DNA of 58,389 nucleotides, from the NCBI GenBank assembly GCA_050942615.1, contig JBMNNQ010000004.1, positions 1-58,389 of the forward strand. Reading direction: 5' to 3'. Shown piece after piece: positions 18,308 through 54,782 of this stretch. The notes beneath the pieces were generated by a model. The model was not told the DNA's origin. It saw only the letters and a program-made list of their open reading frames with translations, and did no database searches. The position numbers and the translations under genes are program-made. The number at the start of each line of letters is the position of its first letter. The first letter of the stretch is position 1. Source of the stretch: Dethiobacteria bacterium. Its GTDB lineage: Bacteria; Bacillota; Dethiobacteria; DTU022; UBA8154.

Positions 18308-18380
18308 CCCCGGCTGTTTACCTTATAAAGGAAAAACAAGTTCATTATAGCATATTACACCTGATTTAATAAGTAAAAAA

Positions 18381-18556
18381 ACCCCACCATGACGTGGAGC
18401 CGCTGTTTTGAACTCTCCCCCAACAGGGGGGTGCCCTCTTAGATGCTTTGTAGGTCCCCTAATGCTTAGGGCTTCTACGCCGCATATAAAGTCAGGCTCC
18501 CATTATAACAGTGTTAGCTCAAAACTTTGGCGACCGGACACGCGCACGGTAGGGTA
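18381..18556 (-). ncRNA. ssrS: 6S RNA
   Basis: About 176-nt rod whose 5' ACCCTACCGTG pairs with the 3' CATGGTGGGGT. Firmicute 6S-like blocks TTTGAGC, GGGAGC, GAGGGCACCC, GTTCAAAAC. Lies downstream of aspS, as B. subtilis 6S-1 does. Confidence 0.88.
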
Positions 18557-18690
18557 TTTTTATTAAAAATTTATAAGATTCCCTGTTTACAGGAAACAAA
18601 GACAATATTTTTTGCCGGGACAGAAAATTCTATTTTATCCGGGAGCATTGAACATAATTACACCCACAGAATATTTAATCAACTGCCTAT

Positions 18691-38544: not shown

Positions 38545-38578
38545 GTAAAAACAGCCCCGCAAACCTCTCCGGCCCTGC

Positions 38579-38762
38579 GTGAGATAGCACTCCACCGGCA
38601 AAAAGGGCTTATTTTACCGGTGACAGTCCGCCAGTTATTCACTGGTGGACCAGCTTTTAGCCTTGGGGCAACTAAAAACTTCGGCGGCGGAACCTTTCTA
38701 CACAGTTCATCAAACCCCACTTTCCCTGTGTATATTCATTTCCTGCCGCACCTCTACCTCAC
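38579..38762 (-). promoter_or_regulatory. Lysine riboswitch (L-box)
   Basis: Minus strand GTGAGGTAGAGGTGCG...GAAAGG...GCCGAA...TGG...GAATA...GACTGTCA...GGAGTGCTATCTCAC; P1 closes; upstream of lysA. Confidence 0.95.
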
Positions 38763-38810
38763 CCCGGGTTAAGAGATGAGGCAAATATATAATTAACTCT
38801 TTACCAGCGG

Positions 38811-39260
38811 CTATTCACTTTTACCGACAACTGCAGTTATAACCGCTTTGAAACGTTTGCCGGCCTGGAATTTTTTTTCCTGTCCTCTTAAAATTAAAAA
38901 AACAAAAACCATGGCCGTCAATCCCAGGGCCAGCCCTCCCAAATCCGGACTGATCTGCAACCCCAGGCTGATAGCTAAACTTCTGCCGGCAAAAAGACCT
39001 GCCAGCAAAGCCAGGACCGGCAGGATATAAAGAAGAAATGCAGCATAAAGTATTTCCTGCGATCGCGTTTCCAGGCGGACTACTTCCCCTTTTTGGGCGC
39101 CAACGGGGTTTATTACCTCTACCAGCAGGTGTCCTTTTTCTGCCGGATCACCGAAAAAACCCACGCAAGCGCCACAGCCGGCACAGGAAGAATGTTGGTG
39201 CACCCTGACCAGCGCCCTGTTATTTTCTACAAGCTCCATAACCAGCCCCAATTGTTCCAT
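38811..39260 (-). CDS. rseC: RseC/MucC (RnfF-like) family membrane protein
   Basis: SSCAGCGAC, NPVGAQKGEVV, AAFLLYILP, two TM helices; start ATG 39260. Confidence 0.85.
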   Translation of the reverse strand: MEQLGLVMELVENNRALVRVHQHSSCAGCGACVGFFGDPAEKGHLLVEVINPVGAQKGEVVRLETRSQEILYAAFLLYILPVLALLAGLFAGRSLAISLGLQISPDLGGLALGLTAMVFVFLILRGQEKKFQAGKRFKAVITAVVGKSE

Positions 39261-39478
39261 GGCTTTGACCTGCTCCTTTTCTTCAGTATAAACGCAATTC
39301 ACCTGAAAATCAAGGTATCATTAAGTTTCCCTAAATTTGGTTGCTATATTCTTATATGCCCGCAGTTAAGAAAAAACCGGGTCAACATATACTGTGGACT
39401 CCGATAAAAAAAATATAGTGCGGGATTTATGAAGGGGGGGTAATACATGCGGGTATTATTTTATAGCAAGCCTGGTGT

Positions 39479-39586: not shown

Positions 39587-40435
39587 CTAAGCAAATGCCT
39601 CCGGAATGCTTTTTAGGGTAGCATAACTAAAAACCGGCCCGTCCTTACAGACATAGAGATGGGCCACATTACAGCGGCCGCATTTGCCAATACCGCATTT
39701 CATCCTGTTTTCGAGAGTAGTGAAAATCTGCTCATCCGTGAAGTTCAGCTCTTTCAGATTTTGCAGAACAAAGTTGATCATCACCGGTGGTCCACAGGTA
39801 ATTGCAATTGTGTTTTCCGGCGAAGGATTCACATCCATGAGCAATGAAGGAACAAAACCTACATAGTGTTCCCAGCCCTCTTCTTCGATATCGACGGAAA
39901 GATGATATTTAACATCGTCCCGCTCATCCAGTGCTTTAAATTCGTTTTTAAAGCAAAGGTCTGCAGATGTCCGGGCCCCATAAATTAAGCTTAATCCTTT
40001 ATAATCTGCCCGGTTGGCCTTGACGTATTCAATAATCGGGCGCAGGGGAGCCTGCCCGATGCCACCGCCGATTGTCAGGATATTTTTTCCCTTCCAATCG
40101 TCAACGGGAAAGCTGTTGCCGTAAGGTCCGCGGACAGTCATTTTGTCACCGGGTTCAAGCTCATGCAGAGCCTGGGTAACTTTGCCCGCACGCATCACGG
40201 AAAACCGTAGGAATTTACCCTCTGTAGGGGAACAGGAGATCGAGATCATGCTCTCGCCCACTCCTAAAATCCCAATCATGGCACATTGGCCGGGACGGTG
40301 TGACCAGTTTTCCCTAACTTCTTCATCATCGAGGACAACTTTAAAGGTTTTAATGGCGCGATCGCCGTATGTTTCCTGCCAGGTATCCTCAATAGTTGCT
40401 ATTTCAGGTTTATAGGGATTAGCTATTTCTTTCAT
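39587..40435 (-). CDS. flxA: FAD/NAD(P)-binding [2Fe-2S] subunit, FlxA (AsrB/HydG-like)
   Basis: PGQ, RGPYGNSF, GGGIGQAP, CGPPVM, MKCGIGKCGRC, VCKDGPVF. Confidence 0.88.
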   Translation of the reverse strand: MKEIANPYKPEIATIEDTWQETYGDRAIKTFKVVLDDEEVRENWSHRPGQCAMIGILGVGESMISISCSPTEGKFLRFSVMRAGKVTQALHELEPGDKMTVRGPYGNSFPVDDWKGKNILTIGGGIGQAPLRPIIEYVKANRADYKGLSLIYGARTSADLCFKNEFKALDERDDVKYHLSVDIEEEGWEHYVGFVPSLLMDVNPSPENTIAITCGPPVMINFVLQNLKELNFTDEQIFTTLENRMKCGIGKCGRCNVAHLYVCKDGPVFSYATLKSIPEAFA

Positions 40436-41454
40436 ATTGCCTCCTTAATAACCTCTGCTAAAATGTTGAGGATATCAATATTAACCGGACAAAGGTTAAT
40501 ACACCGGCCACAGCCTACACAAGCGATTTTACCGAATTTGGTTGGAAAGTAAGAATACTTATGATTAACCCGGTTACGTGTACGCTCGCGAACGGTAGGC
40601 CGGGGATTATGTCCCGACGCATGCAGCGTGTACTCCGCAAACATACAGGAGTCCCATACCCGGCATCTACGGCCCTCCAACCCTTCTGCCTCATCTTGAA
40701 TATCAAAACAATAGCAGGTTGGGCAGAGGAAGGTACAGGTCCCACACCCCAGGCAGGCCCTGGAGAGATCCTGCCAAAGGGAACTATCCCAAATTCCCAT
40801 CAGTTTTTCCGTAATACCTTCAGTATCGATATTCCGCACAATTTTACCGGCGGCTTCCTGGTGCAGCTTTTCGGCAGAGGCTATATCTTCCTCTGTCGCC
40901 TGTTCCAGCACCCCTGCCGCCTCCTGGCAAAGAACATTCCCTTTTTCCGTCAGGGGTTGTAGAAGATATACTTCCCCCAAGTCCGTAAGCAGCAAGTCCA
41001 GCCCTTCTGTAGAGGCCGGGCCGCCCCCGACAGAGGTGCAAAAACAATTCACTTCAGGATCGGAACAGGCCAAACCAACCACCGTTGTTTTTTCGCGTTT
41101 GCCCTGATAATAGGGATCGTTAAAATCCCAGGAAAAAAGGTCATCAACAATGGCCATGGCCCGGGCGTCACAGGGTCTTACCCCTAGCAGCACTTTTTCT
41201 GCCTCTTCATCCGGTAAATTAAGATCTGTTTTCCCCAACTCATACCGGTATAAAGTTTCTGTCTGCGGAAAAAGGACGCTTTTCGGTGGAACAGTCGTGT
41301 TGGAGAACTCCAGATCCAGCTTATCTTCCGGGGTAATGGGAACAAACCGGAGGGTTTCCCCCACTTTTTGCGGGGCATACAGCTGTTTATCCAGAGCTGC
41401 TAAAAAATCACCAAACTTCTCTTTACCTATTTTCATCCTTTCCATAGTACCCAC
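40432..41454 (-). CDS. flxB: 4Fe-4S dicluster subunit, FlxB (AsrA-like)
   Basis: RPCD, CFCTS, CLGCGTCTFLCPTCYCF, WDSC, HKY, CVGCGRCINLCP. Confidence 0.85.
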   Translation of the reverse strand: MGTMERMKIGKEKFGDFLAALDKQLYAPQKVGETLRFVPITPEDKLDLEFSNTTVPPKSVLFPQTETLYRYELGKTDLNLPDEEAEKVLLGVRPCDARAMAIVDDLFSWDFNDPYYQGKREKTTVVGLACSDPEVNCFCTSVGGGPASTEGLDLLLTDLGEVYLLQPLTEKGNVLCQEAAGVLEQATEEDIASAEKLHQEAAGKIVRNIDTEGITEKLMGIWDSSLWQDLSRACLGCGTCTFLCPTCYCFDIQDEAEGLEGRRCRVWDSCMFAEYTLHASGHNPRPTVRERTRNRVNHKYSYFPTKFGKIACVGCGRCINLCPVNIDILNILAEVIKEAI

Positions 41455-41456
41455 CC

Positions 41457-42440
41457 CTAGAGAATGAAGTCTTCCTTATCGTCAGGACGATAGCTGGATT
41501 GCAACGGTTTAGCTTCGGGATCGATCCCCGGCCTGTACCCGTACTTTTCCTCAACCTCTTTTGAAAACTTCTGATTGAGTTTCATCAATGGTATATCAAC
41601 CGGACAGACCCTTTCACATTCACCACATTCAATACAGCGCCCGGCAAGGTGAAATGCACGGGACAGATGAAACGCTGTGTTTTCTGAAATATTGGTAGAA
41701 CGGTAGATCCAACTGGGATTAAGTCGATCCAGGATACAGTCCTTACAATAACACATCGGACAAACGTTGCGGCAGGAGTAACACCGGATACAACTGCTGA
41801 ATTTATCCTCCCAAAATGCCCAGCGTTCTTCCGCACTTTTTGCCTCTAATTCTGCAACATCCTGATATTCCCCGTTTCCCCAGGCCTCGACCTCTTCACC
41901 CAACGTAACATCAGCTATAATGGGGTTGGGATCACGGCAGTCCAAACATTTTTGGGCCAGTACTTCCTCCCTGGGGACCTCTACAGCACCTTCCGGCAGT
42001 TGAAAAATAATCTTGTCCTTTCCCCACTGGGCCGTTACCGGATCCAGGATATGGGGAAACCGTTCCTCCACCTTTTTTAAGTCCAGCACTCCCTCGCAGG
42101 GACAACCAATAATATACAGCTCTTCCCTTTTAATGCCCTGTTCTATTATTTGCTGGACAACAGCACGGCTGTCACAGCCTTTAACCATGACGGCAACTTT
42201 GCGCGTATCAGGTTTTTCCCCCCGGGGGAGCGGCAGTTTTTCCATTACAATGAGATAGGATGCCAGGTTATTGGTACAAAGAGGTGAAAAGATCAACTGC
42301 TCTGCTTCTCCCGGTTCCTTTATAAAACATGGAGTTACCCTAAAGCCATAGGTTCCCTGTCTCCAGCCAATCAGATACTTAACGTCATCCCGGGAGATGG
42401 TCTCTTTGGCTACAGTTCTGAGTTTTTCCAGGTCTACCAA
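41457..42440 (-). CDS. flxC: 4Fe-4S subunit, FlxC (FdhB/FrhB-like)
   Basis: KGCDSR, IGCPC, CLDC, CIRCYSCRNVCPMCYCKDC, HLAGRCIECGECERVCP. Confidence 0.82.
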   Translation of the reverse strand: MVDLEKLRTVAKETISRDDVKYLIGWRQGTYGFRVTPCFIKEPGEAEQLIFSPLCTNNLASYLIVMEKLPLPRGEKPDTRKVAVMVKGCDSRAVVQQIIEQGIKREELYIIGCPCEGVLDLKKVEERFPHILDPVTAQWGKDKIIFQLPEGAVEVPREEVLAQKCLDCRDPNPIIADVTLGEEVEAWGNGEYQDVAELEAKSAEERWAFWEDKFSSCIRCYSCRNVCPMCYCKDCILDRLNPSWIYRSTNISENTAFHLSRAFHLAGRCIECGECERVCPVDIPLMKLNQKFSKEVEEKYGYRPGIDPEAKPLQSSYRPDDKEDFIL

Positions 42441-42455
42441 CGCGATCCCCCTCCT

Positions 42456-42890
42456 CTACCAATTGATCTTGTTGCGCCGGAATTGTTCGAAAGGTCCGGC
42501 CTCTTTGGCATTTTCAACCACATCTTCAACCACATCTTTCCACTTGGCTCCTTCGGAGGCAGAAACCCAGCTCATATTAAAGCGCTTGGCATCCACACCC
42601 ACATAATCCAGCAATTCCTTCATCAATGTAAACCGGCGACGGGCATAGAAGTTACCCTCCATATAGTGACAGTCGCCCGGATGGCAGCCGGAAACCAGCA
42701 CACCGTCAGCGCCCTGCTGTAAAGCATTGACAATAAAAAGGGGGTTAACCCTACCGCTGCACATAACCCTGATAACATCCAGGTTAGTGGGGTATTGTAT
42801 CCTGCTGGTTCCAGCCAAGTCAGCGCCGGCATAGGAACACCAGTTACATAAAAAAGCGATGACACCTGGTTCAAATTGTTGTTCGCTCAT
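42456..42890 (-). CDS. mvhD: [2Fe-2S] adaptor MvhD/FlxD
   Basis: FLCNWCSYAGAD, RVMCSGR, GCHPGDCHY, WVSASEG. Confidence 0.95.
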   Translation of the reverse strand: MSEQQFEPGVIAFLCNWCSYAGADLAGTSRIQYPTNLDVIRVMCSGRVNPLFIVNALQQGADGVLVSGCHPGDCHYMEGNFYARRRFTLMKELLDYVGVDAKRFNMSWVSASEGAKWKDVVEDVVENAKEAGPFEQFRRNKINW

Positions 42891-44899
42891 CTCATAACCC
42901 CCAATGCAGCAATTTGCGGCAATATCTGGCCGTCCTTAAAGGACCTCTGCTGGGCAGAACCGGAGAAACAGCCGGCAACACAAGCGCCGCATCCCTTACA
43001 TAAGGCATCGTTGACCCTGGCCACCAAAGCCTCATGTCCAAATTGGTTCACCGTTACCAGTTCAATTGCGCTATAAGGACAGATTTCCACACAGTAGCCA
43101 CAGCCCCGGCAGGTATCCTCATTAATATGTGAAACCTGGGCCTGAACCTTGACTTTGCCGCTGGAAAGCAGCACAAGAGCTGATGAAGCCGCCCCCTTGG
43201 CCTGGGCAACAGTGTCCGGAATATCCTTGGGTCCCTGGGCGCAACCCGCCAGGAAAACCCCGTCTGTAGCCGTATTCACAGGGGCCAACTTGGGGTGGGC
43301 CTCCATATAGAAACCGTCGCCTGACTGGGACAACCGTAAAATATCGATTATTTCCCGGGCGTCCTTACGGGGTTCCAGCCCGACAGCCAGAACAACCATA
43401 TCGACCTCATCCTCAACCGGGGTAGAAGTCAGGGTGTTTTCTGCTTTAACTACAAGTTTGTCACCACGTTTGAATACTTCTGAAGGGTTGCCGCGGATAT
43501 AGCGGACCCCTTCCCGCCGTACACGGTCGTAAAATTCTTCAAACCCCTTACCGAAAGCCCGGACATCCATATAATAAACCCTGACATTGGCATCCGGAAT
43601 TTTTTCTGTCAGTAAGTGTGCCAGTTTAGCTGTATACATACAGCACACACGCGAACAATATTCGTTACCGACACTCTTGTCCCGGGAGCCGACACATTTG
43701 ATGAAAGCAATCTCCTTGGGCTCATACGCTTCATCACCCTTACCGATCAGGATTTTACCCCCGGTAGGGCCGGATGCGGATACCAGCCGTTCCAACTCCA
43801 GGCCGGTAATTACATTGTCATAATCGTTGTAACCATATTCCGGCTTCCTGGAAGCATCAAATACGTCGAAACCGGTCGCAACAATGATCGAACCCACCTT
43901 AAATTCTACAATTTCATCCTCTTGTTCGAAATTAATGGCCCCGACACCGCAAGCGTCTACACATTTGGGCGACTTCCCGCATTTACCCCGGGTCAACATC
44001 AGGCAACGTTCCGGGTCAATGGTATACTTGGCCGGGACAGCTTGAGGGAAAGGCAGGTAGATTGCTGCCCTATTACCCATACCTTCATCAAATTCGCTGG
44101 GGATCCGCCCTGTTAAACGGCATTCCTGGGCGCAAACCCCACAACCGGTACACTTGTCCATATCCACATAACGGGCTTTTTTACGCACTTTGACATCAAA
44201 GTTGCCCACATAGCCGGAGACATCCTCCACCTTGGAGTAGGTTAACAGTTCGATATTGGGATGACTGGCCACATCCACCATTTTGGGTGTAAGAATACAG
44301 GCCGAGCAGTCCAATGTCGGGAATGTTTTATCCAGCTGGGACATTCTACCCCCAACGGAAGGGGTTTTCTCTACCAGGTAAACTTTAAAACCGGCTTCGG
44401 CAATATCCAAGGCCGCCTGTATACCGGCAATACCTGCTCCAATAATCATGGAGGCCGGTTCAACATCCACCTCTTTTTCCTGTAAGGGTTCCAGTAAACG
44501 TGCCTTGACCGCAGCTGCAGACACCAGCCTTTTGGCTTTAGCCGTAGCTTTTTCGCGATCCCCGTGGACCCAGGAACAGTGTTCCCTGATGTTGGCCATT
44601 TCCAGATAATAAGGATTCAACCCTGCTTCTGCAAGGGTTTTGCGAAAGGTCAGCTCGTGCATACGGGGAGAACAGGAGGCTACCACGACGCGGTTTAAGC
44701 CCTCATTTTTAATGTCTTCCCGGATCAGCGCCTGTCCGGGATCAGAACACATGTAGGAATAATCGCGTGCCACCTTGACATTCGGTAGCCGGGAGGCAAA
44801 CTCCGCTACGGCTTCAACATCTACCGTATTGGCAATGTTGATGCCGCAGTGACAGACATACACACCTATTTTGGGCTTGTTGTTCATTGCATCTTTCAT
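42887..44899 (-). CDS. hdrA: Heterodisulfide reductase subunit A (flavin-bifurcating type)
   Basis: CHCGINI, SCSP, REHCSW, GAGIAG, DKTFPTLDCSAC, inserted and C-terminal ferredoxin domains, LELER, YCSRVCCMYTAK, GPKDIP. Start may be ATG 44887. Confidence 0.96.
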   Translation of the reverse strand: MKDAMNNKPKIGVYVCHCGINIANTVDVEAVAEFASRLPNVKVARDYSYMCSDPGQALIREDIKNEGLNRVVVASCSPRMHELTFRKTLAEAGLNPYYLEMANIREHCSWVHGDREKATAKAKRLVSAAAVKARLLEPLQEKEVDVEPASMIIGAGIAGIQAALDIAEAGFKVYLVEKTPSVGGRMSQLDKTFPTLDCSACILTPKMVDVASHPNIELLTYSKVEDVSGYVGNFDVKVRKKARYVDMDKCTGCGVCAQECRLTGRIPSEFDEGMGNRAAIYLPFPQAVPAKYTIDPERCLMLTRGKCGKSPKCVDACGVGAINFEQEDEIVEFKVGSIIVATGFDVFDASRKPEYGYNDYDNVITGLELERLVSASGPTGGKILIGKGDEAYEPKEIAFIKCVGSRDKSVGNEYCSRVCCMYTAKLAHLLTEKIPDANVRVYYMDVRAFGKGFEEFYDRVRREGVRYIRGNPSEVFKRGDKLVVKAENTLTSTPVEDEVDMVVLAVGLEPRKDAREIIDILRLSQSGDGFYMEAHPKLAPVNTATDGVFLAGCAQGPKDIPDTVAQAKGAASSALVLLSSGKVKVQAQVSHINEDTCRGCGYCVEICPYSAIELVTVNQFGHEALVARVNDALCKGCGACVAGCFSGSAQQRSFKDGQILPQIAALGVMR

Positions 44900-44954
44900 C
44901 CTCCAACCAAGAATAACTGATCATGCCTATCTGCAAAAAACATCTTTTTCCCGA

Positions 44955-45929
44955 TTAACCCCGCAGTTCCTTCAACTTTTCTGTCATCTTGGGAACTACC
45001 TTGAAAAGATCATCGATGATAGCAAAATCAGCCACAGTAAAGATGGGTGCATCGGGGTCCCTGTTGATGGCTACGATGGTTTTTGATCCCTTGATGCCGG
45101 CAATGTGCTGGAAAGCACCGGAAATGCCAATGGCGATATAGAGTTTTGGCTTGACCGTCTTACCGGAGGTGCCCACCTGACGATCGTGAGACAGCCAGCC
45201 GGCATCGGTTGCTGCACGCGAACCGCAAAGGTCGGCGTTGATAGCTGTAGCCAGTTCTTCGATCATCGCCATATTTTTTTCTTCCTTGACCCCTCGCCCC
45301 ACCGCAATGAGAATTTCCGACTGGGTAATATCGACATCGCCCACTTCGGCTTCCAAATATTCCACAAAACGGCGGTATTCAATATCTTCCTTCAAGGGGG
45401 AATCGATCTTTTCAATCTGGCCCTTTTTAGAAGGTTCAGCGGCTTCAAGGCTGGCCTCCCGGAAGGTGATTAAGTAGGGAGCCTCTCCTTTAAAAGCAAA
45501 ATTGGCGTTGACCTTGCCCTGGTAATATTGGCGTATCGGTTGCAGCTTGCCATCCACAACCTGCACATCAAATACGTCGGCAATAAAAGGCACTTTCATT
45601 TCCACAGCCAGCGCCGGGGCCAAATCCACACCCTGGGTCGTATGACCAACCATGAAAAGTTCAGGCTTGTACTGGTTAATCAGCTCCGCCAGGACCTTCT
45701 GATACTTTTCAGAGTTGTAATCCGCAAAAAGAGGATCATCAATATAAAGAACCTTATCGCTGTAACCGGCAAGTGTTTCTGCAAAGGAATCCACGCCGCT
45801 GCCCAGAAGGACCGCCACCGTGGAACCACCTAATTCTGCAGCCAATTCGGAAGCTTTGGTCAGCATTTCCTGCGAAACTTCCCGCAATGCTCCTTGACGA
45901 TGTTCAGCTAAAACAAATACGTCACCCAT
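44955..45929 (-). CDS. etfA: Electron transfer flavoprotein alpha subunit
   Basis: [44 protein letters not shown]. Confidence 0.97.
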
Positions 45930-46718
45930 TTAGAGCAGTCCTCCTTTCACTAATTTAGTAGCCATGATTTCCCCTTTTTCTTCCGGTTCACCTTCGATGA
46001 TTTCCGCTGTGGAGACCACTTCAGGGATATAAAATTCTTTCATTTCAACCAAAGAACCGGCCGCACCGATTTCTTCTTCGCTAAGGTTCAAATCCTCAAT
46101 TTTCAACACTTTGAGTTCTTTCTTCTGCGCCTGCCGAATACCCCTGATAGGTGCATAGCGGGGTTCGTTGATCCCGGTCTGAATAGTAACAACAGCCGGC
46201 AGTGTAACCTCTACAACCTCAATGACTCCCCCTTCCAACTCCCGGTGAGCCTTGATCTTGCCGTCTTCAACCTCCACTTTTTTCACCATGGCGGCATGAG
46301 GCACACCCAATTCCTCGGCCAAGGCCACTCCCGTAGACATATTACCGTAATCATTGGACATACATCCGGTTAACACCAGATCGAATTCCTGCCCTTTAAT
46401 CACTGCAGCAAGAGTCTTCGCCACTTGCAAGGGATCATGGGTGTTGATCCGCGGATCATCGATGCGCATCGCGCTGTCGCCGCCTTTGGCCAAGGCCATG
46501 CGGATCATTACATCATCATCTGCCGGCCCCATACAAACAACCTGGACCGTCCCACCCTTAGCTTCCTTAATCAATACTGCTTCTTCAACAGCATAGTTGT
46601 CAGCGTCGTTGATATCAAAGGAAAACTTGCTGCTATCAACATCCTTGCCTGTTGCATCCACCTTTACTTCTGCCTCCGAAGTATCCGGTACTCTTTTGAT
46701 ACAGACAAACGTTTTCAT
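45930..46718 (-). CDS. etfB: Electron transfer flavoprotein beta subunit
   Basis: VCIKRVPD, AVEEA, RELEGG, INEPRY. Confidence 0.96.
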   Translation of the reverse strand: MKTFVCIKRVPDTSEAEVKVDATGKDVDSSKFSFDINDADNYAVEEAVLIKEAKGGTVQVVCMGPADDDVMIRMALAKGGDSAMRIDDPRINTHDPLQVAKTLAAVIKGQEFDLVLTGCMSNDYGNMSTGVALAEELGVPHAAMVKKVEVEDGKIKAHRELEGGVIEVVEVTLPAVVTIQTGINEPRYAPIRGIRQAQKKELKVLKIEDLNLSEEEIGAAGSLVEMKEFYIPEVVSTAEIIEGEPEEKGEIMATKLVKGGLL

Positions 46719-46866
46719 GAAAGCTCCACCTCCTGTAGACAGTTATTTTTCAAAAGATGGGCTCTAAAAACCCAGCAGAAAAACTTTTAAAGTATCCCCC
46801 CTTACGCTGGAAGCATCATTATTTTAATGCTATCCGCATAATTTCAACAAAAGCGCTATGAAAGCA

Positions 46867-48015
46867 CTATTCTATCAGTTTTCCGGCAATTTCCAATATT
46901 TCCATAACCTGCATTTCCTCTTCGAAGCCCTTCGCCTTAACAGCGTCGTCCAAAGTTAAAACACAGAAGGGACAGGCAACGGCCAGGATAGTAGCACCCA
47001 GCTCCTTGGCATCCCGAACTCTCACTTCCGCCAGGCGTTCCTTGTGGGATTCAGTTTCCGCCCACATCTTGCCCCCGCCCCCTTCGCAGCAGAGGCTGCG
47101 TTCCCTGTTGCGTTCAAACTCAACCTGTTCTGCACCGGGAATCTGGCTTAGGATATAGCGTGGCTCATCGTACACATCGTTTCGTTTGCCCAAATAGCAG
47201 GGATCATGAAAAACAATCTTCTGGGCAAACTCTTTTGTAAATACTAATTTTTCATCTTCCAGAATTTCTTTCAACAGATGTGTATAGTGTATCACCTCTG
47301 CCTGCAAATCAGGATACTGATTTTTAAGGGCATCATAACAGTGGGGAGAAAGGGTTACAATCCTGTCGGCATCAAAGCCGTTTAAAAGCTCTGTGCCATC
47401 CTCAACCATCATTTCAAAAAGGCCGTCCTCCCCAACTTCCCCCATGTTGTATACTTCACTGCCACAACAGACCTCGTCATCCCCTACAAAACCATAATCA
47501 ATACCGGCTTTATTAAGTACTTTTACAAAATTTTGGGCGATAACCTGAACCTTGGGGTCATAGGCGATGGTACAACAAACAAAGATGAGGTTTTCCACTT
47601 TTTCTCCGGGCACAGCAACTTTAACATCCAATCCCTGCATCCAGTCACTGCGTGTTGCCTTGGGTTTGCTCCAGGGGTTACCCTCCCGGAAAGCGCTTTC
47701 CAGGGCATCTCTGACTGTGGGCTGAATTACACCGCTTTCTACAAGGATGTTTCTCAGGCCAATCAGCACCTCCATAGGCTTGAGGCCTTTGGGGCACCTG
47801 ATGGCACAGGTTTCACAAGTGGTACAATCCCACACTTCCGGCAATTTTGCCAACTCTTCAAGCATACTTTCATCAAGAGCATCGTAAACAATGCGCCTTA
47901 CATTTAAGTCAGTCCGTGCATTAACCGGGCAGCCTCCGGTACATCTTCCGCACTGGATGCACCCCAACAAATCATGTTTTTGAATAAAACTCTGAACTTC
48001 TGTATTCATCTTCAT
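46867..48015 (-). CDS. Soluble HdrD/GlcF-like Fe-S oxidoreductase (two 4Fe-4S clusters plus two CCG domains)
   Basis: CIQCGRCTGGCP, CTTCETCAIRCP, GNPW, EVCCGS, HDPCYLG, SLCCEGGGG, ACPFC; no TM segment. Confidence 0.9.
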   Translation of the reverse strand: MKMNTEVQSFIQKHDLLGCIQCGRCTGGCPVNARTDLNVRRIVYDALDESMLEELAKLPEVWDCTTCETCAIRCPKGLKPMEVLIGLRNILVESGVIQPTVRDALESAFREGNPWSKPKATRSDWMQGLDVKVAVPGEKVENLIFVCCTIAYDPKVQVIAQNFVKVLNKAGIDYGFVGDDEVCCGSEVYNMGEVGEDGLFEMMVEDGTELLNGFDADRIVTLSPHCYDALKNQYPDLQAEVIHYTHLLKEILEDEKLVFTKEFAQKIVFHDPCYLGKRNDVYDEPRYILSQIPGAEQVEFERNRERSLCCEGGGGKMWAETESHKERLAEVRVRDAKELGATILAVACPFCVLTLDDAVKAKGFEEEMQVMEILEIAGKLIE

Positions 48016-48274
48016 ACCTCGCTAGAGATGTAATTTTATCTACCATCCCTTCAAGATTGCTTGTAACCGCCCACTTATATTCCTCAATTAATAGAAAACT
48101 ACCAATTAACTTAATTACTGTAAAAAACCTGGTTAAAAAAATCTATCATTGGCGGTAATTATGATCAAATTGTTCCCCTGCAAAGCACCTCCCCTGCAAC
48201 CAATTTCGTTCAAAATCCGGACACCTGACCACATAACTTTATTCAGCATTAAATATATTTACCGCCCATTTTGA

Positions 48275-48302
48275 ATTCGACACCAGAAAGAAAAAATCCT
48301 TC
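48275..48302 (-). promoter_or_regulatory. Sigma-H-type promoter with overlapping Spo0A box, facing the Fe-S/etf/hdr/flx operon
   Basis: Minus strand GAAGGATTT-N12-GTCGAAT; TGTCGAA at 48276-48282. Confidence 0.6.
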
Positions 48303-48522
48303 TTACTGGCTTAAACTTTTAAGCATTCAGGAATAGTTTGAAAAATCGGATGCTTTAGCCTCTTCCCTTATAATAGAAACCAATACCAACCCTTTCCAAA
48401 AGGTTGTCAAATATAAATAATCAAGCTGCTTCAGCTAGAAAATAACTAAATCAGACTGATAATGACATTATTTTCAACAAAAGGAATAGTTAGAAATGAT
48501 ATGTATTAATTTTTCTTAATAT

Positions 48523-48549
48523 AGAGGATTTCGGGTCTACATGTCGAAA
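48523..48549 (+). promoter_or_regulatory. Sigma-H-like promoter with overlapping Spo0A box, facing the spo0E-like gene
   Basis: AGAGGATTT-N11-GTCGAAA; TGTCGAA at 48542-48548. Confidence 0.5.
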
Positions 48550-48825
48550 AAAGTTTTTAGGAATTAATTCCTTTAGTTAAATATATTGCCAGAATGTAAC
48601 TTCTTGTGTAAGTTGGGGACAACCATACATGTCCCGGCAATATTTCATTTTCAGTCGCTGTACCGGTGGTTGTTTTGATTTAAGAAAGTTAGACGGCATG
48701 AAGGTCAGTGCTTCAGCCGGCTACAAAAAGTTAAGGCTGCAAAGGGTTACTGCGCCATTATGCGAAAGGAGGCAGGCGTTTTCTTCCACCAATAAAATGG
48801 TGGGTTTCCGCGCCTGGACTTTTCA

Positions 48826-49014
48826 ATGAAACAGGTAGATGAAAAGAAGCTGCTTGCAGATATCGAAAAATTTCGCAAAAAATTAAACAAAGAATTTGAT
48901 CCGGTAAGAAAAACCCCAAAAAGCAGCCAAAAAACTTATTTTTTAAGTTGTGAACTGGACAAGCTGATTAACCAGTACATGAAAATAACACAAACAAAAG
49001 AGTTCGTGAAATGA
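48826..49014 (+). CDS. Spo0E-family aspartyl-phosphate phosphatase
   Basis: 62 aa, two helices; IEKFRKKL and LSCELDKLINQYM (variant of the SQELD signature). Confidence 0.8.
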   Translation: MKQVDEKKLLADIEKFRKKLNKEFDPVRKTPKSSQKTYFLSCELDKLINQYMKITQTKEFVK

Positions 49015-49089: not shown

Positions 49090-50979
49090 TCAGAACAACT
49101 TCCGGGCCACTCTTTCATCCCCCAGGCGGCGGGTATATTTGCAGCCGTCGAAATATTCTAGCAGAGCCTGTGCATATTTGCGGGAGGTTTGCAGTAGATC
49201 ACGGTATTGGGCAAGGTTAATGCGGGGGTTTATTTGTAAATAATCCCTCAAAACCTGCAGGCAGTGTGCATAAACATTGCTTTGCAGGTAGATTTCTGTA
49301 GCAATCTTTACCAAGACACCCCTATATACAAGGTAATCCAGCAGGTCCCCTGTTTCCTCCTTTTCAAGACCCAATTCAAGGCCTAGATCCTTAGGCGCAG
49401 GTGGTGTGAGCCCGCCTCTCTCAAAAAGTTTTTCAATTTCTGTCATTTTTTTCTCCTGAACTGCGGTAGGCCGGGGCATAAAACCCTTTTTGGTAACTGC
49501 ATCGCCGCTGATGACAAGCAAACCTTTACCTTTTAAATGTTCCAAAAGGGCATCATAGGCCGGGCCGGCAATTTTACGGGGCAGACGCCTGCCAACCCAG
49601 GATTTTGGTGCACCTGGTAACAAAGGTTTTTCCTGATGAAAATGTTCCAGTTCTTTCAGAATCTCTTTTTCCCATTTTTCCTTATCCGCAGCAGTAACAT
49701 ACAAATCACCGAATAAAGCCACTTTTTCCTCCGCTGCGGCCCTTTGCAGCAGCTTTTCCAACCGCTGCGGGGTCATTTTTGTCAGGTGTGATAAATCAGA
49801 CAATGGGGCAGCTTGGACGGCTGTTATTTTTTGCAGCACAAAGGTTAAGGAATCGCCTTCTTCAAGTTCCTGCAACCTTTCCAAAACACCCCTGTGGAAT
49901 CGTTTGTGGCGCAAAGGGCGTTCATCGAGCACCACTCCCCCGCCGACAGTGACAACCGGTGAATAGGAACGTATTATAAACCGATCGCCGCGTTGGGCGA
50001 TCAGGGGTTTATCAAGCCGGCATTGCACAAAGCACTCTTTCCCGGGCAACAGCTCTGCATTCCCCAGTAAAAACAAGGCGGCTACGGCCCGGGCCGTCCC
50101 TAAATAAAAATGAACAGGCGCCATGTTGGTTAGCGGACGGGGAGCTGTAGAAAGCAATTTAAGCTTGGCATCCAGGCGCCGGGTAGTACGAAAATAACCA
50201 GGGGCAGCCACTACTGATCCTCTTAGCACCCCTTCCTTTTCCAAACCAGCCAGGTTCAAAGCGGTCCTTTGCCCTACAAAAGCCTCCGCAACCCCTTCAC
50301 CATGGACCTGAATTCCCCGCACCCTGAAGTTCCGGCCGGGAGGGGTCACTTCAACCGTATCACCTGTTTTTACCGAACCGTTTAAAATCGTCCCTGTAAT
50401 AATGGTTCCAAACCCGGATAGGGAAAAAACCCGGTCCACAGGCAGGCGCAGCGGGGCGTCTTTATCACCGGCGGTTATTTTTTCTGCCATTCGGGCCAAT
50501 GATTCCCGCAGGCTTTCAATGCCCTGTTTTGTAATTGCAGAAACGGGATGCAAGGGGCTGTTCGCCAAAAAGGTACCGGCAAAGGCTTCCTTGACCTCCT
50601 CTATAATCAGTTCCAACCATTCCTCATCCACCAGATCAATTTTGGTTATAACAATTATTCCTCTCTTTATCTGCAGCAGTTCCAGAATGTCAAGATGTTC
50701 TTTTGTCTGGGGCATAACGCCTTCCGTAGCATCAACCACCATCAAAACAAGGTCGATCCCCCCTACCCCGGCCAGCATATTATGAATAAACCTTTCATGT
50801 CCGGGGACATCAACTATCCCTGCCAGAAGGCCGCCGGGAAGTTGAAAGGGGGCAAACCCGAGATCAATGGAAATACCCCGTTTTTTTTCTTCTTTTAACC
50901 GATCTGTATCTGTACCCGTCAGGGCCTTAATCAATTCTGTTTTACCGTGATCCACATGCCCGGCTGTTCCAATAATCAT
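49090..50979 (-). CDS. selB: Selenocysteine-specific elongation factor
   Basis: [39 protein letters not shown], winged-helix tail [13 protein letters not shown]; ATG 50979 overlaps the selA stop. Confidence 0.98.
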
Positions 50980-52442
50980 GGCCCAGAACCCCCCCCCGTT
51001 TCTTCCTCTGCAGACCACGGAAAGGTCTGCACAATTGTTTCTATTAACAGTTCATCCGCTTCTTCCAAAAGAGAACGCAAATCCAGTAAAATCTTATTTT
51101 TCAGTACCCGGGAAATAACAGGCTGCCTGGCTCCCCACAGCTTTTTAACCAGTTCGTTCACATTCGTCCCGGTGCGCTCCAGGGTTACCTGATAGCTGGG
51201 CAGGGAAGCCAGGGGCAGGGAGCCGCCCCCCACCCGTGCCTTTTCCCGGGAAATGCCGATAACCCAGTCTGGACTTAGTTTGGCAGCTAATCTTGCGGCC
51301 AAAACTTCTGCCCGTGCTTTTAAAACCGTGTCCGGTAGGGTAAGCATACGCAAGATGGGAATTTCCCGGAAAGCTATTTCTTCATCCAGGTAAAGGCGTA
51401 AAGTGCTCTCCAGGGCAGCCAAGGTCATTTTGCCCACACGCAAAGCCCTGGTTAACTGGTTGCTTTTTATTCTTTCCAGATATTTTTTCTTACCGATAAT
51501 TAGACCGCTTTGGGGGCCCCCCAGCAGTTTGTCCCCACTAAAGGTCACAATATCAACCCCGGCTTTTATAGAATCCTGAACCCGGGGTTCATAAGGCAGA
51601 TCGTAACGGGTGAGATCAACCAGGACCCCGCTGCCCAAGTCTTCCATGACCGGCAAACCGCATTTCTTACCCAACGCCACAAGTGAAGCGGCGCCTACCG
51701 AGGATGTAAAGCCCATAATCTTAAAGTTACTGCTATGCACCTTCAACAGTAGGGCTGTTCTTTCATTAACAACTTTTTCATAGTCCCGCAGATAGCTCTT
51801 ATTTGTTGTCCCTACTTCAGCAAGCTGCGCTCCGCTGGCAATCATCACTTCCGGCAGACGAAAGGAACCTCCGATTTCCACCAGTTCGCCGCGGGAAACA
51901 ACAACTTCCCGCCCCGCCGCAAGGGTATTCAAAGCCAGGAAAACCGCCCCTGCATTGTTATTGACTACCAGCGCTGCTTCGGCCCCTGTGAGACGGCAAA
52001 TAAGTTCTTCCACATGTTCGTAGCGGTAGGCCCGGCGACCGGTTTGCAAAGAAAGTTCCAGATTGCAGAACGAACTGCTCACCTTCTGCAGCATTTCCGC
52101 TGCAGCCGCCGCCAACGGGGCCCGTCCTAAATTTGTATGCAAGAGCACACCGGTAGCATTAAAAACAGGATGAAAATTGGCCCTGGATTTTGTATCAACC
52201 TTTTTCCTGGCCTGTGAAGCAAGGGCAGCAGGGGAAAAATTTATACCTTCCAGTTGCCGGCCCGTTAAGGCCCTTTGAATAACAGCCCGTTTTTCAGCCA
52301 CTACTTCCTGCACTGCTTCCACAATTAGATCACGTGGTATTTCCCTTTCCATTTCCTTCAAATCTGTTTCCTGCAAAATCTTATCTACAGCCGGCAAAAG
52401 ACGTAAATACTTTTGCCTGAGCTGTTTATAATCCAGGGGCAA
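50976..52442 (-). CDS. selA: L-seryl-tRNA(Sec) selenium transferase
   Basis: NATGVLLHTNLGRA, VNNNA, SRGELVEIGGSFRLP, EDLGSG, FSGDKLLGGPQ. Confidence 0.98.
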   Translation of the reverse strand: MPLDYKQLRQKYLRLLPAVDKILQETDLKEMEREIPRDLIVEAVQEVVAEKRAVIQRALTGRQLEGINFSPAALASQARKKVDTKSRANFHPVFNATGVLLHTNLGRAPLAAAAAEMLQKVSSSFCNLELSLQTGRRAYRYEHVEELICRLTGAEAALVVNNNAGAVFLALNTLAAGREVVVSRGELVEIGGSFRLPEVMIASGAQLAEVGTTNKSYLRDYEKVVNERTALLLKVHSSNFKIMGFTSSVGAASLVALGKKCGLPVMEDLGSGVLVDLTRYDLPYEPRVQDSIKAGVDIVTFSGDKLLGGPQSGLIIGKKKYLERIKSNQLTRALRVGKMTLAALESTLRLYLDEEIAFREIPILRMLTLPDTVLKARAEVLAARLAAKLSPDWVIGISREKARVGGGSLPLASLPSYQVTLERTGTNVNELVKKLWGARQPVISRVLKNKILLDLRSLLEEADELLIETIVQTFPWSAEEETGGGSGP

Positions 52443-54686: not shown

Positions 54687-54782
54687 TGGCGGGAGTAGAT
54701 GGGAATCGAACCCACCATGGGCCTCGTCAGCCCATCATTGGATTTGAAGTCCAAGGCGCCCACCAGGTGCACAACTACCCCC
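54687..54782 (-). tRNA. selC: tRNA-Sec (anticodon UCA)
   Basis: 8-bp acceptor GGGGGTAG/CTACTCCC, G discriminator, encoded CCA, anticodon arm TTGGA-CTTCAAA-TCCAA, long variable arm, 5-bp T stem with TTCGATT; near selAB. Confidence 0.97.

Follow-up and report, generated by a model that had tools for sequence, protein, structure and literature searches.

A soluble operon of ETF, an HdrD-like protein, HdrA, MvhD and Flx subunits in Dethiobacteria: a candidate quinone-free bifurcating system

How can an operon that encodes an electron transfer flavoprotein (ETF) together with the heterodisulfide reductase flavoprotein HdrA work when it contains neither the HdrB and HdrC subunits nor a membrane protein? 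The question is raised by a stretch of 58,389 nucleotides (hereafter the window; contig JBMNNQ010000004.1 of assembly GCA_050942615.1, positions 1 to 58,389) from an uncultured digester bacterium of the Dethiobacteria, in which eight co-oriented open reading frames (ORFs) occupy positions 39587-48015 of the minus strand. The original prediction, made from the DNA letters alone, held that ETF and HdrA are coupled by a soluble protein with CCG domains: ETF would stand where the disulfide normally does, NAD(H) and ferredoxin would be the remaining partners, and no quinone would be involved. The comparative tests reported here fit that idea and lend it indirect support. We consider it probable that electrons pass from NADH through the Flx proteins and MvhD to the flavin adenine dinucleotide (FAD) of HdrA and are split there between ferredoxin and a branch leading through the CCG-domain protein and ETF to acyl-CoA dehydrogenases (ACADs), reversibly and in one soluble complex without quinone. 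This reading gains support because the genome holds only this ETF, because no spare CCG protein, DsrC, MenA, MqnA/D or ETF-QO was found in it, and because of the likeness of the CCG-domain protein to EtfD, the ACAD neighbours in six variant loci and the precedent of benzoyl-CoA reductase.

Gene identities come from Pfam and NCBIfam profile searches of the translated ORFs of the window. In gene order, all on the minus strand, the operon encodes an HdrD/BamD/EtfD-like soluble iron-sulphur protein (46867..48015; 382 aa; a Fer4 dicluster and two CCG domains in Pfam; hereafter the CCG protein), the ETF beta subunit EtfB (45930..46718; 262 aa; Pfam ETF), the alpha subunit EtfA (44955..45929; 324 aa; ETF and ETF_alpha), HdrA as the proposed bifurcating flavoprotein (42887..44899; 670 aa; matching the solved 5odc_A), an MvhD/FlpD (FlxD-like) [2Fe-2S] adaptor (42456..42890; 144 aa; FlpD, 178.7 bits), an FlxC-like iron-sulphur protein (41457..42440; 327 aa with 18 Cys; 4Fe-4S dicluster domains at residues 214-283), an FlxB-like iron-sulphur protein related to ShyB/AsrA (40432..41454; 340 aa; Fer4_22, 119 bits) and an FlxA-like NAD(P)H-binding [2Fe-2S] flavoprotein (39587..40435; 282 aa; NAD_binding_1, DHODB_Fe-S_bind and FAD_binding_6). 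EtfA, which carries the mobile FAD domain, has no N-terminal ferredoxin domain. The ETF and ETF_alpha domains of EtfAB exceed their cut-offs, at 135.6, 129.9 and 116.6 bits, and the TTG start codon of flxC is the call of the ORF finder. From the CCG gene to flxA the measured intergenic distances are 148, 0, 55, -4, 15, 2 and -4 bp, which bears out the tight packing described earlier from etfB onward, with gaps of at most 55 bp and two 4-base overlaps (mvhD with hdrA, flxA with flxB); the genes of the operon are translationally coupled. The absence of transmembrane segments was likewise borne out by a Kyte-Doolittle scan (19-residue window, threshold 1.6), in which seven of the eight proteins had no transmembrane-like segment and the CCG protein had just four windows above the threshold (337-341), all within its conserved CCG core. 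As the original prediction also stated, no hdrB, hdrC, hydrogenase, formate dehydrogenase or acyl-CoA dehydrogenase gene was found in the operon, nor in the rest of the window, and Pfam revealed no gene of the AOR family in the operon.

The CCG protein combines an N-terminal HdrC-like domain for two [4Fe-4S] clusters with two CCG domains. Its closest solved relative by sequence is EtfD of Mycobacterium smegmatis (9ojn_A; phmmer E 5e-49, query residues 61-380 on target residues 409-741), and the same EtfD ranked first (E 8.9e-19), followed by LutA and then by HdrB chains, in a Foldseek search with an AlphaFold model that served for this fold search only (mean pLDDT 73.7; the CCG half confident, residues 1-78 poor). 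HdrC matches the protein in its N-terminal dicluster part only, the HdrB match is marginal (E 1.5e-4), and the top NCBIfam match is thiol:fumarate reductase TfrB, at 160.9 bits under a cut-off of 385. Across 28 orthologues the second CCG motif is canonical (C273, C309, C310, C348 and C351 invariant); the first, in which C147, C148, C184, S223, P224, H225 and C226 are invariant, reads S-P-H-C where EtfD has C-P-H-C, a feature common to this protein and the BamD-like protein of the same genome, to which it is 38% identical over 369 residues. Judged by its likeness to EtfD in sequence and fold, the CCG protein is of the ETF-oxidising kind, and we propose it as the docking site of ETF and as the wire to HdrA. 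Prediction of a complex of EtfA, EtfB and the CCG protein from 28-row alignments gave a median score of 0.65 and two controls with the partner replaced gave 0.00, yet a control in which EtfA was replaced still reached 0.61, so that the prediction speaks neither for nor against docking.

HdrA aligns with the solved HdrA 5odc_A over residues 8-665 (836.6 bits, E 1.2e-250) and, to judge from this match, is a full-length close relative of a structurally characterised bifurcating HdrA, with a thioredoxin-reductase-like FAD core, an N-terminal four-Cys domain, and inserted and C-terminal ferredoxin domains. The Glu and Lys that the original prediction had pointed to are both retained: the motifs LELER and CCMYTAK align with LELER and CCMYAMK of 5odc_A, and E370 and K425 correspond to E356 and K409, counted on the printed alignment. 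The Glu, like the Lys, lies near the flavin of bifurcating HdrA. A Lys beside flavin N5 is described as a hallmark of Hdr-type bifurcating flavins (bioRxiv 10.64898/2026.04.10.717634). The NCBIfam model HdrA2 scored 890 bits against a cut-off of 1100; the model extends over an MvhD fusion (positions 644-775), and in this operon hdrA and mvhD are separate genes. For the remaining subunits the best NCBIfam matches all lie under their cut-offs, namely ShyB (222 bits) and AsrA (155.6 bits) for FlxB, and PRK08345 (hydrogenase gamma; 252.6 bits), HydG (222 bits) and AsrB (183 bits) for FlxA, which is the proposed pyridine-nucleotide site.

The gene order is conserved far beyond this organism. The CCG family comprised 3778 proteins at E <= 0.001 among 8000 candidates scored, the best 120 matches listed being all at least 64% identical to the query, and a scan of one genome per species yielded at least 590 relatives among at least 601 matched stretches, of which the best 80 were kept for locus comparison. 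Synteny was assessed by tblastn of the window proteins against 82 loci; 81 gave a match, and 47 extend at least 8.5 kb beyond the start of the CCG gene. In 45 of these 47 loci the eight genes are complete and keep both order and orientation, and the arrangement can therefore not be due to chance. The search for CCG-etfB-etfA-hdrA-mvhD-flx that the original prediction had proposed thus finds this order across phyla: the carriers are Dethiobacteria (often labelled Syntrophomonadaceae or Bacillota), Actinomycetota (Geothermincola, Solincola, Anoxymicrobiaceae) and NPL-UPA2 (locus L083), and the position of the FlxC-like gene is kept in the same 45 of 47 loci. A MAG labelled Dethiobacter alkaliphilus (L019) is among those with the operon. 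Within the class, a CCG orthologue (E <= 1e-110) was found in 32 of the 61 sampled genomes, that of the window (G000) included; by family it occurs in all 10 genomes of the organism's own family, 13 of 14 in a second (f2) and both of a third (f3), with 2/5, 4/23 and 0/6 in the others.

The two exceptions (L080 and L082) have the order thiolase/ACAD-ACAD-CCG-etfB-etfA-hdrA-mvhD, and mvhD is followed there by cobA, MeaB and methylmalonyl-CoA mutase, or by unrelated genes. They belong to a set of variants in more distant genomes, with CCG proteins about 50% identical to ours (L080:30-8377, L082:8525-15372, L085:3692-10459, L087, L079, L084), and in all six ACAD genes lie on the same strand at most 2.4 kb upstream of CCG-etfBA. 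One form of these reads hbd-ACAD-CCG-etfB-etfA-ACAD, with no hdrA on the remaining contig. These variants may represent the machine in a simpler form or in one that is fed differently.

What else the ETF could serve was sought in the rest of the genome, a metagenome-assembled genome (MAG) of 1.72 Mb in 155 contigs that is 91% complete. The operon's EtfBA is its sole ETF pair, and its two CCG proteins, both fused, are that of the operon and a BamD-like one on contig C131. The survey that had been suggested for hdrBC, dsrC, quinone synthesis and beta-oxidation genes found none of the first three in this genome: no HdrB or HdrC was found and no CCG protein is left over for that role, DsrC (PF04358) has no match in the 91%-complete genome, the best genome match to MenA reaches 18.5 bits against a cut-off of 102, and neither the MqnA/D family nor Fer4_ETF_QO (ETF-QO/FixX) has a genome match. 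Beta-oxidation genes are present in the form of a thl-hbd-acad-crt cluster with a sigma-54 regulator, which holds the single ACAD gene of the genome and has no etf genes; the best NCBIfam models for this ACAD are AcrC and the Desulfococcus-type glutaryl-CoA dehydrogenase, both under cut-off. Because the operon ETF is the only one, the other CCG protein is BamD-like, and ETF-QO, MenA and MqnA/D were not found, the ETF appears to have nowhere else to go. The same economy recurs among the carriers, since exactly one EtfA, that of the operon, is found in 15 of 28 carrier genomes, some of them with many ACAD matches (31 in G015, 19 each in G019 and G020, 18 in G025 and 14 in G018). ACADs occur in all 28 cluster-holding genomes, and the operon ETF presumably serves them. 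As to quinones, MenA exceeds its cut-off in 2 of the 28 carriers, and 18 have no match at E <= 1e-10.

We observed further features of this genome. On contig C15 (L089:2547-15903) the PrpR_N/sigma-54 activator and thl-hbd-acad-crt are followed about 5 kb on by rnfC-rnfD-rnfG. The genome has one FeFe hydrogenase, of the NADH-dependent group A6 (765.8 bits, cut-off 765), and its Wood-Ljungdahl genes include acsCD-acsE-metV-metF; none of the genes beside these encodes Hdr, RnfC or another partner in electron transfer. Its two UbiA genes both lie within near-duplicate cell-envelope clusters (L093:382-5672 and L094:1033-6150, on contigs C46 and C87) that encode NAGPA, a nucleotidyl transferase, DUF554, the UbiA-family protein and an LPG-synthase-like protein; this pair may be a true duplication or strain heterogeneity of the MAG.

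A second Hdr-type machine appears to be encoded at two contig ends. One, on C131 (L088:11880-15560), carries an AOR-family BamB orthologue (970 bits over its full length to 4z3w_A) beside a 184-aa BamC-sized protein and the 383-aa BamD-like CCG protein; the other, on C16 (L090:6122-9732), carries a 916-aa BamE-like protein with HdrA matches in three stretches (a fused double HdrA) and a BamF-like fusion of MvhD and ferredoxin (L090:6122-6985, minus strand). When TGA is read as selenocysteine, the BamF-like fusion has this residue at position 19 from its Met (FLCHWU...), and BamF is described as having Sec19 (bioRxiv 10.64898/2026.04.10.717634). These genes, on unjoined contigs, look like a BamBCDEF-type set for a class II benzoyl-CoA reductase (BCRII). 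Cys18 of the operon's MvhD (FLCNWCSY) sits where the BamF-like protein has its in-frame TGA; selenocysteine in the operon itself, suspected from the selA, selB and tRNA-Sec genes upstream, was rejected, all eight ORFs being uninterrupted here and in the 45 full loci. BamB orthologues occur in just 4 of the 28 carrier genomes, and the operon is therefore not specific to benzoyl-CoA reductase.

In the mechanism that we propose, the complex would consist of Flx(A,B,C)-MvhD-HdrA-(HdrD-like)-EtfAB. FlxA, with its FAD and [2Fe-2S] cluster, would oxidise NAD(P)H, and the electrons would travel through the iron-sulphur clusters of FlxB and FlxC and the [2Fe-2S] cluster of MvhD to the FAD of HdrA. There the low-potential electron would leave through the ferredoxin domains of HdrA to free ferredoxin, and the high-potential electron would enter the CCG protein, cross its two cubane clusters and then its CCG clusters (of the non-cubane type) and arrive at the FAD of ETF, which would exchange electrons with acyl-CoA dehydrogenases. 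The net reaction would be 2 NADH + 2 Fd(ox) + enoyl-CoA = 2 NAD+ + 2 Fd(red) + acyl-CoA. Run in reverse, NAD+ would re-oxidise reduced ETF at the expense of reduced ferredoxin, which Rnf can regenerate, and the system would serve beta-oxidation as a quinone-free route of reverse electron transfer; the ETF that class II benzoyl-CoA reductase reduces in this organism would be re-oxidised in the same way. More tentatively, the operon could be a general soluble ETF:NAD+ oxidoreductase of quinone-free anaerobes that works by ferredoxin-dependent confurcation and replaces EMO, EtfD and ETF-QO, with one ETF pool joining two HdrA-type machines: benzoyl-CoA reductase would unload onto ETF, and CCG-HdrA-Flx would lift these electrons to NADH with Rnf-regenerated ferredoxin, so that ring reduction and beta-oxidation both proceed without a membrane quinone loop. 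This wider role is possible, although we would not yet expect it to hold.

Each link of the operon has a precedent in a known system. The FlxABCD-HdrABC complex (Hdr-Flox), an NADH dehydrogenase/heterodisulfide reductase of Desulfovibrio vulgaris that Ramos et al. are said to have described in 2015, has the same FlxA-type NAD(P)H/FAD/[2Fe-2S] subunit, two iron-sulphur proteins, an MvhD-like adaptor and HdrA, and shares the proposed coupling of NADH-driven ferredoxin reduction to a high-potential acceptor. It differs in that the order here is hdrA-mvhD-flxC-flxB-flxA, that one fused 382-aa HdrD-like protein with a non-canonical first CCG motif stands in for HdrB and HdrC, that etfBA lies inside the operon, and that DsrC was not found in the genome. 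A closer model for the high-potential branch is BamDEF of Geobacter metallireducens, in which cryo-ET density and ETF reduction assays are reported for bifurcation by the HdrA-type BamE and transfer through BamD to ETF (bioRxiv 10.64898/2026.04.10.717634). The path from an HdrA-type FAD through an HdrD-like subunit with non-cubane clusters to the alpha-FAD of ETF would be the same here; in contrast, our HdrA is a single 670-aa unit and BamE a fused dimer, MvhD has Cys where BamF has selenocysteine, the operon has no BamBC tungsten module (AOR family), the input would be Flx and not BamGHI, the low-potential output would presumably be free ferredoxin and not BamBC, and the ETF genes lie inside the operon.

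EMO of S. aciditrophicus (bioRxiv 10.64898/2026.08.18.745454) and EtfD of M. smegmatis (PDB 9ojn) are described as membrane-bound ETF:(methyl)menaquinone oxidoreductases, and share with the CCG protein a cubane domain and a CCG (NCB) domain, which in EMO and EtfD accepts the electrons of ETF. The FAD of ETF is reported to dock at the non-cubane clusters of EMO by way of EtfB, the docking ETF carrying AMP (bioRxiv 10.64898/2026.08.18.745454), and the distal non-cubane cluster to vary among EMO, EtfD and BamD, with a Cys-to-Ser change in BamD (bioRxiv 10.64898/2026.04.10.717634, 10.64898/2026.08.18.745454). Unlike EMO and EtfD, the protein studied here has no membrane heme-b domain, no quinone pathway was found in its genome, and its electrons would go to, or come from, HdrA. 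The clostridial Bcd-EtfAB complex, finally, uses ETF and an acyl-CoA dehydrogenase for the same overall reaction that we predict (NADH, ferredoxin and enoyl-CoA), but its bifurcating flavin is the beta-FAD of EtfB (Demmer 2017, PMC5691135), whereas we assign the splitting to HdrA, and EtfB of the operon resembles the AMP-type protein of M. methylotrophus.

The suspicion that related clusters may already have been noted in genomes proved correct. In NPL-UPA2 Unc8 an etfAB pair in tandem with hydB-hdrAC was described, cooperation of Hdr and Etf was suggested and further work was urged (Suzuki 2018, PMC6305446); this tandem is our locus L083, which holds all eight genes. The hdr locus I of D. reducens is given as HdrD-HdrA-MvhD-FeS-FeS-FAD/NAD(P) oxidoreductase, without etf genes (Otwell 2016, PMC4759654). 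The sections of these two papers that deal with the loci do not treat the eight genes as a unit, say how widely they occur together or connect them with acyl-CoA dehydrogenases, and full-text literature searches found no characterisation of the unit. The operon is thus assembled from known modules, with a precedent for each link, and it is the assembly itself that is uncharacterised.

Several points weigh against the proposed path from NADH through HdrA to ETF and acyl-CoA dehydrogenases. From gene content, conservation, cofactor motifs and genomic context we infer complex formation, the binding of ETF to the CCG protein, the electron path, the substrates and the direction, and sequence does not separate NADH from NADPH as the nucleotide. 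The presence of ACADs in all carriers is weakly discriminating, since 9 of 14 control genomes have them as well. After mvhD, L080 and L082 have no flxCBA; L085 and L087 continue after etfA with an ACAD gene, and the remainder of these short contigs shows no hdrA. The absences from the genome are provisional because the MAG is in 155 contigs and 91% complete, and independence of quinones would not be universal since several carriers have MenA-like matches close to the cut-off. The ETF itself adds a further difficulty: EtfA scores higher with the bifurcating ETFs (CarE 219.6, T. maritima 208.2, C. difficile 204.8 bits) than with those of M. methylotrophus (180.1) and human (166.5), and the N-terminus of EtfB, CIKRVPDTSE, resembles CAKQVPDTNE of CarD, so that this ETF could itself bind NADH.

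Were the ETF bifurcating in its own right, with two FADs, NADH would be oxidised at EtfB, two bifurcation sites would operate in series or in parallel, and Flx would handle a second nucleotide such as NADPH. The rest of EtfB points the other way. Among solved ETFs it is much nearer to M. methylotrophus (170.6 bits) than to CarD (116.7), human (106.4), A. fermentans (99.5) or C. difficile (91.9), and it reads SNDYGNMSTG where CarD has IDGDTAQVG, a stretch that marks bifurcating ETFs. The M. methylotrophus ETF is termed non-bifurcating (Demmer 2017, PMC5691135), and the ETFs that dock on EMO carry AMP (bioRxiv 10.64898/2026.08.18.745454), although coupled bifurcation modules are known in BCRII (bioRxiv 10.64898/2026.04.10.717634). 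With EtfB and EtfA pointing in opposite directions, we favour on the strength of these comparisons an ETF of the one-FAD kind and regard a two-FAD ETF as unlikely. The CCG protein could alternatively be a genuine reductase of the (hetero)disulfide of some thiol carrier, ETF being only an extra electron donor or acceptor, as its two CCG domains, in which ten Cys/Ser/His ligand positions are conserved, its best NCBIfam match to TfrB (under cut-off) and the Flx-Hdr precedent of FlxABCD-HdrABC/DsrC might suggest. That we find decidedly improbable, given that no DsrC was found in the genome, that the first CCG motif is the non-canonical S-P-H-C of the BamD-like paralogue, that BamD is argued not to bind heterodisulfide (bioRxiv 10.64898/2026.04.10.717634), that the likeness to HdrB (E 1.5e-4) is so much fainter than that to EtfD (5e-49), and that etfBA accompanies the CCG gene in all 45 full loci.

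The partner of ETF might also be a flavoenzyme other than an ACAD, either MetFV (methyl-/methylene-tetrahydrofolate) or class II benzoyl-CoA reductase alone. We know of no interaction between ETF and MetF, and tblastn placed metFV beside the operon in none of the 82 loci; ACAD genes, by contrast, adjoin in six variants, and BamB is confined to those 4 of 28 carriers. What speaks for such a partner is that acsCD-acsE-metV-metF has no electron-transfer partner nearby, that the carrier lineages are described as Wood-Ljungdahl organisms (PMC6305446; PMC7334858), and that the BamBCDEF-like cluster is found in a genome with only the operon's ETF; on balance we think this improbable. Least expected of all is that two neighbouring systems are involved, the CCG protein and EtfAB acting as a soluble ETF oxidoreductase and HdrA-MvhD-FlxCBA working apart from it as an NADH:ferredoxin module with some third partner of its own. 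The gaps of 148 bp between the CCG gene and etfB and of 55 bp between etfA and hdrA would allow it, as would L085 and L087, where CCG-etfBA is followed by ACAD with no hdrA on the rest of the contigs, and the etf-free locus described in D. reducens (PMC4759654), but 45 of 47 loci from several phyla keep the eight genes as one block, an HdrA cannot do without a high-potential branch, for which the CCG protein is the only HdrC-like candidate, and a soluble CCG protein requires an electron sink.

With NADH-to-ETF transfer through HdrA retained as the preferred reading, some observations on the surroundings remain. An RseC/MucC-family membrane protein (38811..39302, minus strand; 163 aa; RseC_MucC, 88 bits), whose membership in the system is uncertain, begins 284 bp downstream of flxA; 24 of its windows exceed the hydropathy threshold, in transmembrane-like segments. 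A homologue lies 3' of flxA in closer Dethiobacteria loci only (L006-L008, L011, L014, L015, L017, L019, L021, L058). RseC-family proteins are tied to Rnf expression in acetogens, and because of this tie such a neighbour would fit a ferredoxin-linked system. Upstream of the operon lie selA and selB (49090-52442) and tRNA-Sec (54687-54782); their linkage, confined to Dethiobacteria-like loci, looks like plain synteny. The AT-rich 1-kb gap between selB and the operon contains a 62-aa ORF on the plus strand (48826-49014), whose ELDKLINQY stretch presumably recalls Spo0E-family phosphatases.

The sigma-54 activator of the beta-oxidation cluster prompted a search for a sigma-54 promoter in front of the operon; the scan gave 38 matches against 36.7 expected, with none in 48016-48600 on the minus strand, and this candidate was rejected. 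Scans for sigma-70 promoters (22 matches, 14.0 expected) and terminators (20, 12.7 expected) were uninformative. Four metatranscriptome assemblies from four studies contain only short contigs, 95-100% identical, that partly cover flxA/flxB, flxC, hdrA and the CCG gene; as DNA carry-over is possible and start, end and strand cannot be read from them, they are no proof of transcription or of an operon transcript, and stretches left uncovered carry no meaning. In the contigs of two of these runs (X3 and X5) one base is missing at 42441, immediately 5' of the called flxC start, which is probably a strain difference. The remainder of the window is ordinary chromosome. Farther along, a lysine riboswitch (38577-38764, minus strand, 120.5 bits) precedes lysA and starts a separate lysine-biosynthesis unit 3' of the operon (lysA-dapF-aminotransferase-asd-lysC), a 6S RNA gene (18377-18558, minus strand, 88.7 bits) lies between mgtE and aspS, and the window also holds secDF, hisAF, relA, recJ, aspS, hisS and the dcw cluster.

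How syntrophs and other strictly anaerobic bacteria get rid of the high-potential electrons from acyl-CoA oxidation has long been a problem of energetics, and two solutions are known: a quinone loop in the membrane (EMO, EtfD) and bifurcation by the Bcd-EtfAB complex. The operon would be a third and fully soluble solution, built on an Hdr-type bifurcation core and widespread in Dethiobacteria and anaerobic Actinomycetota from digesters, soda lakes and serpentinising sites. If our reading is true, the principle of ETF as the high-potential partner, shown for benzoyl-CoA reductase, would extend to canonical HdrA, and the large set of bacterial HdrA proteins that lack HdrBC would gain a named partner. 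It would also explain beta-oxidation in genomes that have one ETF, many acyl-CoA dehydrogenases and no MenA, and would make Hdr-type bifurcation testable in a compact model whose substrate is a protein, ETF.

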